A stretch of DNA of 64,000 nucleotides, taken from NCBI GenBank assembly GCA_025453395.1, contig JALOQK010000008.1, forward strand, positions 938 to 64,937, read 5' to 3'. Each line of letters opens with the position of its first letter. Position 1 is the first letter of the stretch. Origin of the DNA: Candidatus Omnitrophota bacterium. Its GTDB lineage: Bacteria > Omnitrophota > Gorgyraeia > Gygaellales > Profunditerraquicolaceae. The notes below the pieces were generated by a model. The model was given only the letters and a program-made list of their open reading frames with translations. It was not told the DNA's origin and searched no databases. Shown here in pieces: positions 2,835 to 55,905 of the stretch. Both the position numbers and the translations under genes were made by a program.

Positions 2835-4550
2835 CTATTCCTCAGTAGTGATCCTGACCGCCTCTTCCAAAGAAGTAACCCCGTCTCTTACTTTTATAAA
2901 AGCATCATCTCGGAGGGTAAGCATCCCACAATTTTTTATGCAATAATCTTTGATTTCATCAATAGAGCGCTTTTTGGTAATCATCTCTCTTATCTTATCA
3001 TCAATAAGAGAAGTCTCCAGGATTGCTATTCTACCATAAAAACCCGTGTCATTACAATACTTACACCCATAGGAATTATACACCGGCATTCTTTCATCAA
3101 GGCCTAAGTTGCGCAAAACATCTTTGGGCACATCTATCTGTTTGCGGCACTTAAGACACAGTTTTCTGCACAGTCTCTGAGCGCACAACATCACCAGGCT
3201 TGATGAGACTAAAAACGGCTCAACCCCCATATCCAAAAGGCGGCTTATGCTTGATATCGCATCGTTTGTATGCAGCGTTGATAAAACAAGCTGTCCTGTA
3301 AGAGCGGCCTTAATGGCAATATCCGCGGTTTCAAAATCGCGGATCTCCCCGATCATGATTACATCCGGGCTCTGCCTTAATATCGCGCGCAATCCCGAAG
3401 CAAAATCAAGTTTAATCTCATGCCTGACCTGCACCTGCGTGATGCCTTCAATCTGATACTCTACGGGATCCTCAACTGTTACAATATTTTTCTCAGGGGT
3501 ATTTAACTGGTTTAAAACGGAATATAAAGTCGTGGATTTTCCTGAACCCGTGGGGCCGGTAACTAAGATCATGCCAAAAGGCTTGGCAATGGCTTGCTTA
3601 AAAACCTGGGTCGGCCTCTCTGAGAATCCAAGCTTATCCAAACCTATGGAAAGATTGGTCTTATCAAGCGCGCGCAAAACAAATTTTTGCCCGAAAGTAG
3701 TAGGCAGGCTTGAAACACGAAAATCTACTTCCCTGTTTTCAAAACGCACCTTGAACCTGCCATCTTGAGGGATACGGCTTTCGGTAATATCAAGATTCGA
3801 TATAATCTTAAGCCGCGCCAAGACCGCGTTCTGGTTATTCCGAGGGATTTTAAACGCCTCCAATAAAGACCCGTCTATGCGGTAACGCACTCTCAAGCAA
3901 TCGTATTCCGGCTCTAAATGAATGTCTGAAGCCCTGCGGCGCAATGCTTCGCTGAGCATTAAATCCACCATTTTGACAATCGGCGGCTTCTGGCTGTCTT
4001 TAACCGCGCTTGATAATTCTATCTGCTCGCTTCCGATCATCTCTACTGAGTCTTTGGCGTCTTGCGACATGGCTTCGCCAACAGTTTCATTAAAGATATT
4101 CTGGAAACTGGCGGGCTTAGGGGCATAATGAGCGTCGATGGCGTGGACAATTTCTTCTCTGGGGCTTAAGACTATATCAATATCACAACCAGTGCATGAT
4201 TTTAAATCATCCAAGGCAAAAACATTTAACGGATCGGCAATGGCCACGGTCAGGGTATTGCCTATGCGCGACAATGGGACAATCAAAGACTGCCTGGCCA
4301 TATGTTCAGGTATCAACTGTACAATATTAGGGTCAAATTTATATTTAGCTAAATGAAGCGTAGGCACATAAAGGTGCTGTGAAAAAACCGCCAATAGATC
4401 CTCTTCTGAAATAAATCCCTCGTCGATTAAGACTTTACGCAAAGAAGCCTGTTTTGTTTTCTGAATAGCCAAGGCCTTATCCAATTGCTCTTGGCTTAAA
4501 AGCTTGTTGGTAAGTAAAATATTGATAATATTATCTTTCAGCGTGGGCAT
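2835..4550 (-). CDS. pilB: Type IV pilus assembly ATPase PilB (GspE family) with MshEN-type N-domain
   Basis: 571 aa. T2SSE_N domain with both 24-aa MshEN motifs (LLSQEQLDKALAIQ / SLRKVLIDEGFISEEDLLAVFSQ). Walker A GPTGSGKST, Asp and His boxes, C-terminal tetracysteine CxxC...CxxC. Confidence 0.9.
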   Translation of the reverse strand: MPTLKDNIINILLTNKLLSQEQLDKALAIQKTKQASLRKVLIDEGFISEEDLLAVFSQHLYVPTLHLAKYKFDPNIVQLIPEHMARQSLIVPLSRIGNTLTVAIADPLNVFALDDLKSCTGCDIDIVLSPREEIVHAIDAHYAPKPASFQNIFNETVGEAMSQDAKDSVEMIGSEQIELSSAVKDSQKPPIVKMVDLMLSEALRRRASDIHLEPEYDCLRVRYRIDGSLLEAFKIPRNNQNAVLARLKIISNLDITESRIPQDGRFKVRFENREVDFRVSSLPTTFGQKFVLRALDKTNLSIGLDKLGFSERPTQVFKQAIAKPFGMILVTGPTGSGKSTTLYSVLNQLNTPEKNIVTVEDPVEYQIEGITQVQVRHEIKLDFASGLRAILRQSPDVIMIGEIRDFETADIAIKAALTGQLVLSTLHTNDAISSISRLLDMGVEPFLVSSSLVMLCAQRLCRKLCLKCRKQIDVPKDVLRNLGLDERMPVYNSYGCKYCNDTGFYGRIAILETSLIDDKIREMITKKRSIDEIKDYCIKNCGMLTLRDDAFIKVRDGVTSLEEAVRITTEE

Positions 4551-28520: not shown

Positions 28521-29425
28521 ATTTTTATTTCTGGCTGAAGCTCTATGCCAAACTTTCTTTTGACCTTAAGGCGTGCCAAATCCATCAAGGATAAAATATC
28601 GCTTGTTTTAGCGCGACCATCATTAATAATAAAATTAGCGTGCTTTGCGCTTATATAAGCCCCGCCAATGCGCTTGCCCTTAAGGCCGCAGGCGTCAATA
28701 AGTTTACCGGCAGACTGGCTTTTGGGGTTTTTAAACACGCACCCTGCGGAAAACCCGGACACCAGCTGTTTTTTCCTCCGGTATAAACAATAATCTTTTA
28801 TCATCCGCCTGATAACTTCTTTTTTTTGCGCCTTAAATCTAAAGCGGGCACTCAAAATAATGTACTTGCCTAAATTGCTTGCTCGATAGGCAAATTTTAT
28901 TCTATCTCTTGGAATAGCTTTTATCTTCCCGGCGGCATCCATCACTGTCACAGACAAAACTATATCCTGCATCCACCGTTTTTTATAAGCTTGCCCGGCG
29001 TTGCCAACTATCGCCCCTCCCACTGTCCCGGGAATGCCAGACAAAAATTCAAAGCCTCCCAGCCCCAGAGAAACCGCGTAAGAAACAACAGCCCCCAACG
29101 GGCATCCAGCGCCTGCCTCTATAAAATTGCGCGCCTTTTTTATTTTCTTGAAAAAAGGCGCTGACAACTGAATCACTGCGCCTTTTTTCCCCTGGTCTGA
29201 AATCAAAAGGTTGCTGCCTAAACCAATAATTGAATATGATATATTATATCTTTTTAGGCACTTTAGCAATAATTTTAAATCCTCTACTGTGCAAGGCTTA
29301 ATAAAATACTCTGCTTTCCCGCCCAGCCTAAAAGTAGTATGCCTGGATAAGGGATAATTAAGTTTTATTTTTATTCTGTTTTGACAATTCTTCGGCAATC
29401 TCATCAGATATTCTGGTAATATCAC
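28511..29425 (-). CDS. murB: UDP-N-acetylenolpyruvoylglucosamine reductase
   Basis: 304 aa. FAD-binding motifs SRHTTFRLGGKAEYF and IIGLGSNLL. Overlaps murC by 68 nt, so an internal start is possible. Confidence 0.9.
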   Translation of the reverse strand: MILPEYLMRLPKNCQNRIKIKLNYPLSRHTTFRLGGKAEYFIKPCTVEDLKLLLKCLKRYNISYSIIGLGSNLLISDQGKKGAVIQLSAPFFKKIKKARNFIEAGAGCPLGAVVSYAVSLGLGGFEFLSGIPGTVGGAIVGNAGQAYKKRWMQDIVLSVTVMDAAGKIKAIPRDRIKFAYRASNLGKYIILSARFRFKAQKKEVIRRMIKDYCLYRRKKQLVSGFSAGCVFKNPKSQSAGKLIDACGLKGKRIGGAYISAKHANFIINDGRAKTSDILSLMDLARLKVKRKFGIELQPEIKIWK

Positions 29426-53535: not shown

Positions 53536-53696
53536 ACTAAATATATAATCCCAATAACCAATGACCAAATCTCAATCACCAAATAAATTCCAATAATCAA
53601 TAACCAATTTACCAAACAGGTTTGGTAAATTGGGCAATTGGTAATTGGTTATTGTTTGATTATTGGTGCTTGATAATTGGTTATTAATCATATGAA
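53536..53696. repeat. Long imperfect palindrome built from CCAAT/ATTGG units between ribBA and ribH
   Basis: Arms ...ccaataatcaataaccaatttaccaaac / gtttggtaaattgggcaattggtaattggttattgtttgattattgg centred on ccaaacaggtttgg (53612-53625). Confidence 0.5.
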
Positions 53697-53719: not shown

Positions 53720-54931
53720 TCACCTTATATCTAAATGATGACCCATCTTCTCTTTTTTAGTCTTAAGATACCTGTAATTAACATTGTTAGGCTCTATCTC
53801 TATGGGAAGCCGCTCAACAACTTTAAGCCCATACCCTTCAAGCCCTACTATCTTGCGTGGATTATTGGTCATAAGACGGATATTCTTTATTCCTAAATCC
53901 ACCAAAATCTGCGCCCCAATGCCATAGTCGCGTAAGTCCGGCTTAAAACCTAAAGCCTGATTTGCCTCTACTGTATCAAGGCCTTTATCCTGAAGCGCGT
54001 AGGCGCGGATTTTCTCTACCAAACCAATGCCTCTGCCCTCCTGATTCATGTATAAGATGACACCTTTTTTCTCTTTTTCAATAAGCTGCATGGCTTTTTT
54101 AAGCTGCCTGCCGCAGTCACAACGTAAAGATGAAAAAACATCCCCGGTTAAACATTCTGAATGCACCCTGACTAAAACATTTTCATTGCCAAATTCACCC
54201 ATAGCCAAGACTGTATGCACCTGATTATTCACCAAATCTTTATACAGAATAAGCTTATAAGTACCGTATTCGGTTGGGACATCTGTTTCTGCAACCCGCT
54301 TAATTAATTTTTCATAACGCCTGCGGTACTGAATTAAATCTGCGATGGAACATATTCTTAGGTTATGCCTAGAGGCAAATTCCTTCAACTGAGGCAATCT
54401 TGCCATAGTGCCGTCTTCATTCATGATCTCGCAAATAACCCCGGCCGGATACAAGCCAGCGAGTTTAGCTAAATCCACGCAAGCTTCAGTATGGCCAGAA
54501 CGCACCAAGACCCCGCCCTTCTGCGCCCTTAAGGGAAACAAATGGCCCGGACGGATCAAATCTTCCGGCAAAGACTGCGGATTAATCAACACTTCTATTG
54601 TATGTGCGCGGTCATGCGCTGAAATGCCAGTGGCAATCCCTCTGGAAGCATCCACAGAAACCATCCAAGCGGTAGAAAATTTGTCTTTGTGGAAAGAAAT
54701 GTTTTTATCCATAAACATAGGCCCTAAATTAAGCGCGCTAAGCCTTTCTTCTTCCATGGGCACGCAAATAAGGCCTCTGCCGAATTTAGCCATAAAATTA
54801 ATGTGTTCGGCCTTAACAAAAGAGGCAGCCATCAAAAGGTCGCCTTCGTTCTCGCGGGATTCATCATCCACGACTACGACCATTTTGCCGTTTTTTAAGT
54901 CTTCTAAGATTTCTGGAATTGAGTTAAACAT
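53720..54931 (-). CDS. ribBA: Bifunctional 3,4-dihydroxy-2-butanone-4-phosphate synthase / GTP cyclohydrolase II
   Basis: 403 aa. DHBP synthase N-half (RENEGDL) and GTP cyclohydrolase II C-half with CxxC zinc ligands ([20 protein letters not shown]). Confidence 0.92.
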
Positions 54932-55011
54932 AGTTTAGCTGGATATAGTCTAATTTTTTTACATTGTTTCTGATTATACCCGGCGCAACTTGATGCGCCG
55001 GTATGTTGTCT

Positions 55012-55048
55012 TCTACAACAAAAGGCCCGAAGAACATTCTCTTCGGGC
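55012..55048 (-). terminator. Intrinsic terminator of the FMN riboswitch expression platform
   Basis: Minus-strand hairpin GCCCGAAGA-gaatgt-TCTTCGGGC (9-bp stem) followed by CUUUUGUUGU. Confidence 0.5.
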
Positions 55049-55065
55049 GAATAGATATTACTATT

Positions 55066-55376
55066 AATCATCTTCTCTCATCTGGACTTTGCGCAGATAG
55101 CGCACGCCGATCCTTAAAATAGGATCGGGCGACGCCTACTATGCGTGCCTGGCTACCCCCAATTCAATTTGATGAATTGGGGTGCCTTTTCTAGGCTACC
55201 ATCGGTACTGGAATTACACCAGTTCATGCCTGTTTAAGGCTTGCGGACTGTTACACCCGGCGCAATTTGATGCGCCGGTGTGCGCTTGCCTAAGCTACAC
55301 CCGGCGCAATTTGATGCGCCGGTGTGCGCTTGCTGCGCTACCGCCGGTCGGGAATTTCACCCTGCCCTGAAGATTA
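55066..55376 (-). ncRNA. FMN riboswitch (RFN element) in the ribBA leader, with an expanded variable region
   Basis: The 5' part reads CTTCAGGGCAGGGTGAAATTCCCGACCGGCGGTAG and the 3' part AAGTCCAGATGAGAGAAGATGAT, the conserved aptamer termini. It is upstream of the rib operon and followed by a terminator. Confidence 0.75.
55252..55333. repeat. Tandem direct duplication (2 x 38 nt, 44-nt period) of a hairpin element inside the riboswitch, with a third diverged copy at 54977-55003
   Basis: tacacccggcgcaatttgatgcgccggtgtgcgcttgc occurs perfectly at 55252-55289 and 55296-55333. Each copy contains the hairpin ccggcgca-atttga-tgcgccgg. Confidence 0.85.
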
Positions 55377-55382
55377 AGCTTT

Positions 55383-55410
55383 ATTATATAGGTAAAAGTA
55401 TCCTTGTCAA
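55383..55410 (-). promoter_or_regulatory. Sigma70 promoter driving the FMN riboswitch / rib operon
   Basis: Minus strand reads TTGACA-N16-TATAAT. The aptamer begins ~8 nt downstream of the predicted TSS. Confidence 0.5.
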
Positions 55411-55432
55411 TATATTTAATCAAAGGTATAAT
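55404..55432 (+). promoter_or_regulatory. Divergent sigma70 promoter for pncC, giving a near-leaderless transcript
   Basis: Plus strand reads TTGTCA-N17-TATAAT. The -10 ends 8 nt before the ATG at 55441. Its -35 overlaps the minus-strand -35 on the quasi-palindrome cTTGTCAa. Confidence 0.45.
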
Positions 55433-55440
55433 GTTATATT

Positions 55441-55905
55441 ATGGAAACCATTGCCAAACAAATACATACGCTGCTGATTAAGAATAAAAAGACTGTTGCT
55501 GTGGCTGAATCCTGCACTGGAGGATACACCTGCATGCTTCTCACTCAATTTCCAGGCAGTTCTGCTTATTTCTTAGCTGGGATAGTAGCCTATCACAATA
55601 GCTCTAAAACAAAACTATTGGGTATTTCCAAAGAGATCTTAAAAAAACACGGGGCGGTAAGCGCCATTGTAGCAAGAAAAATGGCTGAGCATATCCGTAA
55701 AACTACCGGCGCAAACTTAAGCATCGGAATAACCGGCATTGCCGGCCCATCTGGAGCAACAAAAAATAAACCCATAGGAACAGTATTTATCGGCTTGTCA
55801 GGAAAAAGGCAAATTGTTAAAAGATTTCTATTGCGCGGCACAAGAATGGATATACAGAAAAAAACTGCTTTAAAAGCCTTGCAACTATTAAAAAAAATAA
55901 TATGA
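55441..55905 (+). CDS. pncC: CinA C-terminal-domain protein / NMN amidohydrolase PncC
   Basis: 154 aa. VAVAESCTGG motif and GIAGPSGAT region are typical of the CinA C-domain. Confidence 0.8.
   Translation: METIAKQIHTLLIKNKKTVAVAESCTGGYTCMLLTQFPGSSAYFLAGIVAYHNSSKTKLLGISKEILKKHGAVSAIVARKMAEHIRKTTGANLSIGITGIAGPSGATKNKPIGTVFIGLSGKRQIVKRFLLRGTRMDIQKKTALKALQLLKKII

Follow-up and report, generated by a model that had tools for sequence, protein, structure and literature searches.

A two-hairpin repeat family in the receptor loops of an FMN riboswitch aptamer and in 16S rRNA leaders of Omnitrophota

The stretch of DNA analysed here, referred to as the window, comprises 64,000 nucleotides of a Candidatus Omnitrophota bacterium (GenBank assembly GCA_025453395.1, contig JALOQK010000008.1, positions 938 to 64,937; coordinates below are numbered from its first nucleotide). 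Its minus strand contains a riboflavin operon, ribBA-ribH-nusB-PHP-ribD-ribE, and a flavin mononucleotide (FMN) riboswitch aptamer lies upstream of it at 55375-55069. Copies of a 42-nt two-hairpin repeat occupy two loops of this aptamer, and further copies are located downstream of the riboswitch terminator and in the leader of the 16S rRNA gene. An initial annotation made from the DNA letters had assigned an FMN riboswitch with duplicated hairpin inserts to positions 55066-55376; the feature is real, with the correction that its RNA is read from the minus strand. The first gene of the operon, ribBA (54931-53720, minus strand, ATG at 54931), is an open reading frame (ORF) with the Pfam domains DHBP_synthase and GTP_cyclohydro2; Pfam also identified DMRL_synthase, NusB, PHP and RibD, and the synteny is kept in all relatives. 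The leader begins behind a sigma-70-type promoter at 55410-55383 (minus strand; TTGACA, 16 nt, TATAAT) that agrees with the consensus at 12/12 positions, and the TTGACA...TATA layout is maintained in the leaders of the relatives.

The complete aptamer, delineated from a local match to the Rfam family RF00050 and by helix mapping, extends on the minus strand from the P1 5' strand to the P1 3' strand (55375-55069), with 305 nt between the paired P1 ends at 55374 and 55070. The 5' core (55375-55341) comprises the P1 5' strand AUCUUC, J1/2 AGGGCA, P2 with the T-loop UGAAAUU and the P3 5' strand CGGCGG, and agrees with RF00050 at every upper-case consensus position. It is followed by a 94-nt L3 loop (55340-55247), in which two tandem repeat units lie between GGCGGUA and ACAGUCCGC. 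The central core (55246-55199) provides the P3 3' strand, P4, J4/5, P5 with the T-loop UGUAAUU, CCGA and the P6 5' strand; it aligns to RF00050 with high posterior probability, again agreeing at every upper-case consensus position, and is colinear with the relatives. The 113-nt L6 loop (55198-55086) holds a second insert between GAUGGUA and AAAGUCCAG, and the 3' core (55085-55069) consists of the P6 3' strand CCA, J6/1 GAUGAGA and the P1 3' strand GAAGAU. The true 3' core sequence, AGUCCAGAUGAGAGAAGAU at 55087-55069, agrees with the RF00050 consensus AGUCcGGAUGggAGAaga and lies ~100 nt beyond the point at which the Rfam local match closes. The conserved 5' and 3' parts described initially are thus real, but the single variable region placed between them is not, as the core at 55246-55199 separates two inserts.

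Related loci carry labels such as L003, L083 and L085, and the clade is defined by RibBA sequences at least 72% identical. The leanest relatives have aptamers of 111-117 nt, and the aptamers of L085, L086, L083 and L166 (111-123 nt) define the empty loops: GGCGG-UAAAGU-CCGC for L3 and GAUGG-(U)UAAAGU-CCAG for L6. Compared with the minimal relatives, L3 of the window has 94 nt rather than 6 (88 extra nt) and L6 has 113 nt rather than 6-7 (a 107-nt insert). The unusual length had been attributed to hairpin inserts, and this is correct: the extra ~195 nt, 64% of the aptamer, consist of unit copies split over the two loops. The estimate of roughly twice the normal length agrees with the 138-position Rfam model, which the window aptamer exceeds 2.2-fold, and falls short of the ~2.7-fold excess over the 111-117-nt relatives. 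The 5'-core to 3'-core span is 106-146 nt in ~100 FMN leaders from other organisms that have the same 5' core, a range drawn from those leaders in which the 3' motif search matched.

Both inserts are located at the equivalent point of two pseudo-symmetric loops, GGUA^...^(A)AGUCC. The L3 insert occupies the known variable P3a site, and the L6 insert occupies its mirror image, a site absent from the Rfam consensus; homologous L6 inserts are present in L087, L103 and L111. In FMN riboswitches L2 and L5 are UGAAA T-loops and L3 and L6 are their receptors (PMC3201879, PMC12219259), and the P3a/L3a extension of the Fusobacterium nucleatum riboswitch is solvent-exposed (PMC3201879).

At gathering scores, an Rfam scan of the window reported a tRNA and no RF00050 match. 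The local scan aligned RF00050 over 55378-55180 with 54.6 bits (E = 1.3e-11, against a gathering score of 66.2), an 87-nt insertion in L3 and a poor, forced P6/P1 closure at 55180 that gives the wrong 3' end. The RF00050 search proposed with the initial annotation was therefore negative at the gathering threshold and positive in local mode. The score is low because the model cannot span the L6 insert, and not because of mismatches in the core. Rfam scores drop as units accumulate: minimal clade aptamers score 104-111 bits, other expansions 83-103 bits, L003 80.5 bits, L173 75 bits and L111 72 bits with a wrong 3' end, so that aptamers with one expanded loop span 72-103 bits; the window and L103, in which L3 and L6 are both filled, have no gathering-level match. 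When the inserts are deleted, the window core is colinear with the minimal clade aptamers, P1, P2, P3, P5 and P6 are recovered, and the sequence is 86.4% identical to L085, which itself scores 109 bits. This core, together with the riboflavin operon, the terminator and the antiterminator, upholds the initial identification as an FMN riboswitch. The FMN leader of L103 (~1400-1700 on the minus strand of its locus), with L3 and L6 filled and a span of 305 nt, is likewise unreported at the gathering threshold. As L103 and the window both fall below it, FMN riboswitches may be systematically under-annotated in this clade, and riboflavin regulation would be scored absent in genomes with both loops expanded.

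The aptamer is followed on the minus strand by an intrinsic terminator (55048-55015) composed of the hairpin GCCCGAAGAG-AAUG-UUCUUCGGGC (55048-55025) and the U-tract CUUUUGUUGU. The 5' arm of the terminator, GCCCGAAGA, is complementary to UCUUC-A-GGGC in P1-5'/J1-2 (55373-55364), which reads as an antiterminator; this pairing, CCCGAAGAU with AAUCUUCGGGG, is kept in the leaders of all relatives, in every one of which AAUCUUCGGGG pairs with CCCGAAGAUU. The canonical fold with P1-P6 enforced is 9.7 kcal/mol above the minimum free energy structure, and the inserted hairpins are identical in both folds. Judged by its sequence, the window RNA is a genuine termination-type FMN riboswitch that presumably binds FMN and switches. 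Transcription would start from the promoter at 55410-55383. With FMN bound, P1 (AUCUUC/GAAGAU) and the six-helix junction would form, the terminator hairpin at 55048-55025 would fold and the operon would be turned off; with FMN absent, the 5' strand UCUUC-GGGC would pair with the 5' arm of the terminator and allow read-through.

Comparison with the relatives indicates that the repeated entity is a 42-nt pair of hairpins, rather than the 38-nt element described initially, and that the repeat period is 44 nt. The small hairpin has 4-5 bp and a purine-rich loop (GCGC-AGCAA-GCGC, for example) and is usually followed by a single A as spacer. The long hairpin conforms to 5'-ACRCC-(5-8 bp)-loop-(5-8 bp)-GG-G-YGU-3', where a bulged G sits over a base of 3 bp. 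A model of the unit, R1, applied to both strands of the window with filters off, recovers five units in the rib leader: L3a, L3b, L6a, L6b and a post-terminator unit. L3a (55338-55297, sense, 55.8 bits) reads GCGC-AGCAA-GCGC followed by ACACCGGCGCA-UCAAAU-UGCGCCGG-G-UGU and contains the 38-nt copy at 55296-55333. L3b (55294-55253, sense, 48.8 bits) is identical to L3a at 38/44 nt and differs only in the 5' arm of the small hairpin (GCUUAG versus GCGCAG). L6a (55196-55155, sense), GCCU-AGAAA-AGGC followed by ACCCCAAUUCA-UCAAAU-UGAAUUGGGG-G-U, is a 66% copy that scores 46.7 bits on the minus strand and 8.6 on the plus strand; its stem is wholly different from that of L3a, yet still complementary. 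L6b (55091-55132, plus strand) is antisense to the riboswitch RNA, with 47.1 bits on the plus strand and 8.1 on the minus strand. In the RNA it appears as a long hairpin with a 5' bulged C and then GCGC-UAUCU-GCGC, and it had been missed initially. The post-terminator unit (55017-54976, sense, 36.0 bits) reads GUUGU-AGAAG-ACAAC followed by AUACCGGCGCA-UCAAGU-UGCGCCGG-G-UAU, in which a C-G base pair is replaced by U-A, a compensatory change.

The repeat features that the initial annotation had read from the letters are all found in the sequence. Two mismatch-free copies of the 38-nt element are present, at 55252-55289 and 55296-55333, against an expectation of 0 from shuffles. Each copy contains ccggcgca-atttga-tgcgccgg, the hairpin ccccaattca/tgaattgggg with the same loop is located at 55157-55182, and the diverged copy placed between the terminator (55048-55025) and the ribBA ATG (54931) is a 76% copy at 54975-55012. 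Beyond the two L3 copies, no exact 38-mer is present in the window, only diverged members of the family. The proposal that the 38-nt element recurs elsewhere therefore fails for exact copies in the window and holds for diverged members, which are found in the 16S leader of the window and in relatives. Tandem Repeats Finder reported nothing over 54900-55450, its threshold being too high for 1.9 copies at a period of 44 nt.

In an assembly of short metagenomic reads, a perfect repeat of 38 nt that a single JGI contig spans might have been created by the assembler. Two Logan unitigs from an independent assembly (SRR12684589) match the window at 100% identity; they enter the repeat from its two opposite ends, and each breaks off after exactly 30 nt (k-1, for k = 31), one at 55281 and the other at 55304. 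The 38-mer is thus present in two read contexts, which argues that no assembler artefact is involved, and analogous tandem units in L003, L111 and L173 come from other samples. An artefact is accordingly regarded as extremely improbable. A look-up of strain variants in riboswitch copy number, using CinA, matched only the same JGI contig and its Logan counterpart.

Units are also present in the aptamers of relatives: three in L3 of L003, two in L3 of L173, one in L3 of L100, two in L3 and one in L6 of L103, two in L6 of L111, and one each in L6 and P4 of L087. When the 17 units from seven genomes are aligned in one orientation, the 29-nt long hairpin is 90.9% paired, and both partners have changed in 9 of its 11 pairs. 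The observed covariation is not attained in any shuffle, and slid controls are at most 42% paired. The base of the unit and the single-base bulge are conserved across copies. The upper stem varies (GGCGCA, CCAAUUCA, GAUUCG, UAAUCC, GAACA, AAACC, GAUCCU and others), and the loops are not conserved between genomes. Such compensatory changes are expected under selection against misfolding and are, alone, no proof of function.

Several established identities were considered for the unit and rejected. It is not an integron attC site (no R or L boxes), a DNA uptake sequence (the stems are not sequence-conserved), or a CRISPR repeat, k-turn or sarcin-ricin motif (the defining features are absent), and copies in the wrong orientation argue against a phage put antitermination RNA. 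The UCAAAU loop was dismissed as a protein site or kissing loop since loops on the same stem differ completely between genomes (UUUUCUUUAA and ACUCCGAUA in L173; UCGUUU in L003) and the loop is not self-complementary. A permissive Rfam scan produced only chance-level matches to c4-a1b1 (15.5 bits) and isrK (12 bits). A kinetic-delay role was rejected as well: the inserts lie inside the aptamer and therefore do not lengthen the time between aptamer completion and the terminator.

The unit has an intrinsic polarity. Relative to the riboswitch, seven of the 17 copies in aptamers run antisense, namely L6b of the window, three copies in L103, two in L111 and the P4 copy in L087, and the R1 scores of the two strands are ~38 bits apart, so that the orientation is unambiguous. 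The first hairpin of L103 is the reverse complement of the window element at 26/29 nt, loop included, and the RibBA proteins are only 72% identical. On the element strand the loops of the small hairpins are purine-rich in sense (51/58) and antisense (22/28) copies alike; the RNA of the antisense copies consequently has pyrimidine-rich loops and a bulged C. These features are conserved relative to the element and not to the transcript, which argues for copying or inversion of DNA rather than selection for one RNA motif. The copies are also clustered, as tandem direct pairs in L3 of the window, L6 of L111 and L3 of L003, and as an inverted pair in L6 of the window. The five copies that lie outside the aptamer all have the sense orientation relative to the transcript and directly follow a terminator-like hairpin and U-tract. 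The flanks, compared in element orientation, exhibit no consistent target-site duplication and no terminal inverted repeat distinct from the hairpins. A GTAG end is not conserved either: GUAG accompanies no more than a subset of the copies, in which it belongs to the GGUA loop sequence of the host, and is absent from the 16S and antisense copies.

The 5' end of the 16S rRNA gene is located at the start of the window, and its leader (minus strand) is organized as a promoter (11/12), a hairpin with U7, repeat units, the boxA-like sequence GUUCUUUCUAAAUUAUAGCC and the 16S gene. Two units lie at 330-200, with R1 scores of 17.7 bits (302-262) and 13.1 bits (240-200), the next-best matches in the window after the five rib-leader copies (36-56 bits). 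The unit at 330-246 reads GCGC-AGAAU-GCGC-G-ACACCGGGCA-(nested hairpin)-UGCCCGG-G-UGU and the unit at 240-200 reads GCUG-AUACG-CGGC-ACACUUGCC-AUCAAAUAA-GGCAAG-G-UGU. A loop-tolerant scan with a structure descriptor detected the rib-leader and 16S-leader copies and otherwise only two matches inside ORFs, with 1.4 expected by chance. The view of the unit as a riboswitch-specific element, based on the lack of other copies in 64 kb, was withdrawn, given that only 3.4 kb of the window is non-coding and R1 found the 16S-leader copies. The 16S units begin right behind the U-tract of the terminator-like hairpin (364-338), as does the post-terminator unit at 55017-54976 in the rib leader.

Six clade 16S leaders were retrieved through an upstream pilC anchor, and the terminator-like hairpin with its U-tract is conserved in all of them. 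In L212 and L213 the U-tract is followed by boxA with nothing in between. A full unit (R1 34.7 bits) is present in L215 and a weaker one (23.4 bits) in L216, both outside the training set, and L210 has a unit-like insert and is probably filled. L214 and L215 have identical PilC proteins and 2.9-kb flanks that are 98.1-98.4% identical, and L214 is without the 63-nt segment that bears the unit in L215. The pair thus represents a filled/empty polymorphism between near-identical strains, and there is no target duplication at the indel. Loop types are common to different genomes and contexts, with AUCCNAUA in L215, L103, L111 and L173, and UCAAAU in the window, L103 and L216. The placement of the strong terminator-like hairpin in these leaders (516-338 in the window; L210-L216 downstream of pilC), with 7-9 U, behind conserved promoter-like TTGACA boxes and ahead of boxA, is odd for a terminator; the hairpin may be a boxB analogue or an attenuator.

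R1 also recovers the P4 copy of L087, which, like L215 and L216, was outside its training set, and it detected no unit in the rib loci of other phyla (499, 421 and 389 kb). The unit is restricted to a single Omnitrophota clade, so the term lineage-specific used in the initial annotation is apt. Within 206 kb of non-redundant clade DNA with 62 intergenic regions, units are present in 7 of the 14 complete FMN leaders and 3 of the 6 16S leaders, and in 0 of the 42 other clade intergenic regions (8.1 kb; Fisher p = 1.7e-6). On the RibBA tree of the clade, which is star-like, genomes with and without units are intermingled. The family thus shows rapid turnover and, within the DNA available, a striking concentration in two kinds of long structured leader. 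The window itself has 3.4 kb of intergenic sequence with six regions longer than 200 nt, two of which bear units, and seven copies at two loci in 64 kb. Signs of local duplication are seen in L3a/L3b, in the near-identical L6 units of L111 and in the same hairpin in L3 and L6 of L103. Pfam analysis of 20 window ORFs (119-302 aa) identified housekeeping genes and a XerC/D-type recombinase, and no HUH/Y1 transposase. A 22-mer scan of viral contigs gave 0 matches.

Taken together, the locus is probably a functional FMN riboswitch that carries tolerated passenger copies of a clade-specific, DNA-level hairpin repeat family. The unit would be gained, lost, tandem-duplicated and copied between L3, L6 and other leaders such as that of 16S rRNA, and copies would persist where a self-folding insert is harmless. 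Compensatory changes in the stems would arise because each copy folds on itself, and the aptamer core would stay undisturbed because L3 and L6 point outward into solvent. Copying between L3 and L6 would be easy given that the GGUA...AAGUCC flanks of the two loops are identical, and spread between loci is indicated by the 16S copies and by the loop types common to different genomes. The initial annotation had offered a repetitive or mobile hairpin colonising a riboswitch as one of two alternatives, and both orientations, the 16S-leader copies, the polymorphism between 98% identical strains and the patchy tree make it the better supported one. Several observations weigh against this reading. No consistent target-site duplication, terminal inverted repeat or GTAG end is associated with the copies, and the 20 small and medium window ORFs scanned include no transposase or other mobilising enzyme. 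Because the 16S site is filled in several lineages, the difference between L214 and L215 could reflect loss of an old insert instead of a new insertion. With four or five hairpins in series in a receptor loop, folding might well be disturbed. Finally, confinement to FMN and 16S leaders, unlike the scattered distribution of repetitive extragenic palindromic (REP) sequences, hints at targeting or an RNA-level role. This restriction and the five sense copies behind a hairpin and U-tract outside the aptamer are the grounds on which an RNA-level role or targeted insertion is retained as a minority view.

The unit could instead be an adaptive module that acts in leader RNAs, as a protein site, a pausing or folding element or a stability element, and that was recruited to the FMN and 16S leaders for this function, possibly linking the rRNA and rib-nusB operons. 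It is restricted to two kinds of long structured leader (0/42 other intergenic regions), its five non-aptamer copies are sense and directly follow a terminator-like hairpin and U-tract, the ACRCC...GG-G-YGU base and its bulged G are kept from genome to genome while the stem above covaries, nusB belongs to the regulated operon, and a boxA-like GYUCUUUCUAA follows shortly after the 16S units. The orientation data point the other way, as the 7/17 antisense aptamer copies present complementary loops and a bulged C in the RNA and keep their features on the element strand. Moreover, the unit is missing from half of the clade FMN leaders and half of the 16S leaders, and one strain that lacks it is 98% identical to a carrier; units differ freely in number and placement (L3 only, L6 only, both, P4, post-terminator); the loops differ between genomes, and no Rfam family matches the unit. 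Such a function is therefore thought unlikely. A narrower proposal, a new leader-specific module that prefers long structured leaders, spreads by a process coupled to transcription or structure and then acts at the RNA level, is held only very tentatively; if true, the unit would be a protein-binding, folding or pausing element coupling expression of the rRNA and riboflavin-nusB operons. Alternatively, an ancestral P3a-type extension may have grown by purely local elaboration, through tandem duplication, small inversions and template switching between L3 and L6 with no mobility between loci, the likeness to the 16S hairpins reflecting old common ancestry or convergence. Tandem duplicates are directly visible, copying between the loops needs only microhomology given their common GGUA...AAGUCC flanks, and neither a transposase among the 20 window ORFs scanned, nor a consistent target-site duplication, a terminal inverted repeat or a unit in the 42 other intergenic regions was found; the junction UUUUGUUG, common to the rib terminator and the 16S hairpin ahead of the units, could mediate rare template switching. 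Against this, two loci 55 kb apart have a homologous small hairpin and base (GCGCAGAAUGCGC-G-ACACCGG versus GCGCAGCAAGCGC-ACACCGG), 16S leaders of other genomes have units with loops common to riboswitch copies (AUCCNAUA, UCAAAU), the window element is inverted in L103 at 26/29 identity despite 72% RibBA identity, and the distribution on the RibBA tree is patchy. An entirely local origin is considered doubtful.

The insertions might also have inactivated the aptamer, leaving a decaying riboswitch as a constitutive or otherwise regulated 5' untranslated region. The Rfam score does not reach the gathering threshold, inserts make up 64% of the aptamer, and the L3/L6 tertiary contacts are required for the fold (PMC3201879). 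The conserved core positions, P1 pairing, terminator and antiterminator complementarity are nevertheless all intact, and the low score is explained by failure to place the L6 insert rather than by core mismatch. The inserted hairpins show compensatory changes, as expected if misfolding is selected against, and insert-bearing aptamers persist in seven diverged lineages. Decay is thus judged improbable, and the reading of a working riboswitch with tolerated repeat copies is preferred.

The window RNA shares with RF00050 (the RFN element) the six-helix junction, the core nucleotides, the UGAAA-type T-loops L2 and L5 with their receptors L3 and L6, and the position upstream of riboflavin biosynthesis genes with what appears to be a terminator/antiterminator platform. 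It differs in that L3 holds two serial two-hairpin units instead of the one short helix of the variable P3a, and in that L6 holds a 107-nt mirror-image insert that the consensus does not allow. Self-folding extra sequence tolerated at the surface, lineage-specific and patchy in distribution, is also seen in rRNA expansion segments and in Rickettsia palindromic elements. The latter are 100-150 bp long, lie mostly in coding sequence and are inserted into protein and stable-RNA genes; expansion segments are not members of a repeat family, and neither class involves a ligand-sensing aptamer.

Closer parallels are found among the REP sequences, bacterial interspersed mosaic elements (BIMEs) and REPINs mobilised by RAYT transposases (PMC3116915, PMC3337134, PMC3479197). 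These are likewise short imperfect palindromes with an extrahelical base, non-coding and present in both orientations; they form tandem and inverted clusters, are lineage-specific, have differing but complementary stems and vary in presence between strains. The Omnitrophota unit is distinct as a pair of hairpins, one small and one long, with no conserved GTAG end, no RAYT seen in the 64-kb window, confinement to two kinds of leader in the available DNA and copies inside a functional RNA fold. MITEs (miniature inverted-repeat transposable elements) differ from the unit, which lacks consistent target-site duplications and terminal inverted repeats. In the trp leader of Streptococcus pneumoniae, a BOX element lies between two T-box riboswitches (Croucher et al. 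2011, PMC3049150), similarly a small structured interspersed repeat co-transcribed in a riboswitch leader. The parts of that leader are thought to fold independently, and regulation still works (PMC3049150). BOX is situated between complete aptamers, in contrast to the window repeats, which lie inside the aptamer, in two tertiary-contact loops and in up to four copies. A literature search on FMN riboswitches, Omnitrophota, REP, MITE and aptamer insertion identified no interspersed repeat inside an aptamer fold, BOX being the nearest case. The FMN riboswitch class and small palindromic repeats are already known; the repeat family, its presence in aptamer tertiary-contact loops in either orientation and the L6 insertion site are new.

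The window aptamer represents a natural experiment on riboswitch architecture, in which ~195 nt of hairpins (64%) are apparently tolerated in both T-loop-receptor loops, and illustrates the amount of added sequence that a ligand-sensing RNA can accommodate and the reason such RNAs escape standard annotation. L6 emerges as a second permissive site, mirror-symmetric to P3a, which may be useful in engineering and structural work. The family is a small, previously unreported repeat in Omnitrophota, a phylum without cultured model organisms, and its restriction to two leaders raises the testable question of how and why it arrives there.

Omnitrophota FMN aptamers also contain peripheral expansions that are not built from the unit. 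The L2 T-loop is interrupted by a hairpin, GGUGA-(CCUGCCUG...CAGGCAGG)-AAUUCC, in four clade members (L003 at 3690-3710, L115, L143 and L173); large inserts are present in L5 and J1/2 of L005 and L008, in P4 and L5 of L088, and in P4 of L147 (~130 nt). A second structured element lies between the FMN terminator and ribBA in L083 (5890-5960), L087 (5925-6000), L088 (5865-5945) and L005 (3853-3950). It consists of AAUGAGCGCA, a 10-bp stem, GGAG...GAC, the return stem and UGCGCGAAUUAAUCCC, and has 8 covarying pairs in the 4 sequences. No Rfam family matches it, and the window, L003 and L085 lack it; it may represent a further, uncharacterised regulatory RNA that stands in tandem with the riboswitch.

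The window is a very compact and strongly co-oriented segment, with 57 of 59 ORF-called genes on the minus strand and ~5% intergenic sequence. The gene for FAD synthetase, ribF, is located at 43440-42532, and nusB and the PHP-domain gene are embedded in the riboflavin operon. The 205-nt spacer between ribBA and ribH is A/T-rich, with many CCAAT/ACCAAT-like repeats, and is longer than the 20-130 nt of the relatives; it contains at 53595-53657 a long near-perfect palindrome, CCAATTTACCAAAC-ct-GTTTGGTAAATTGG, within a 15-nt, 93% inverted repeat. The region at 28521-29357 (837 nt), the largest intergenic one in the window, has no Rfam match at E <= 0.01, and at 29107-29189 interlocking inverted repeats, GCGCCTTTTTT/AAAAAAGGCGC, resemble a bidirectional terminator.

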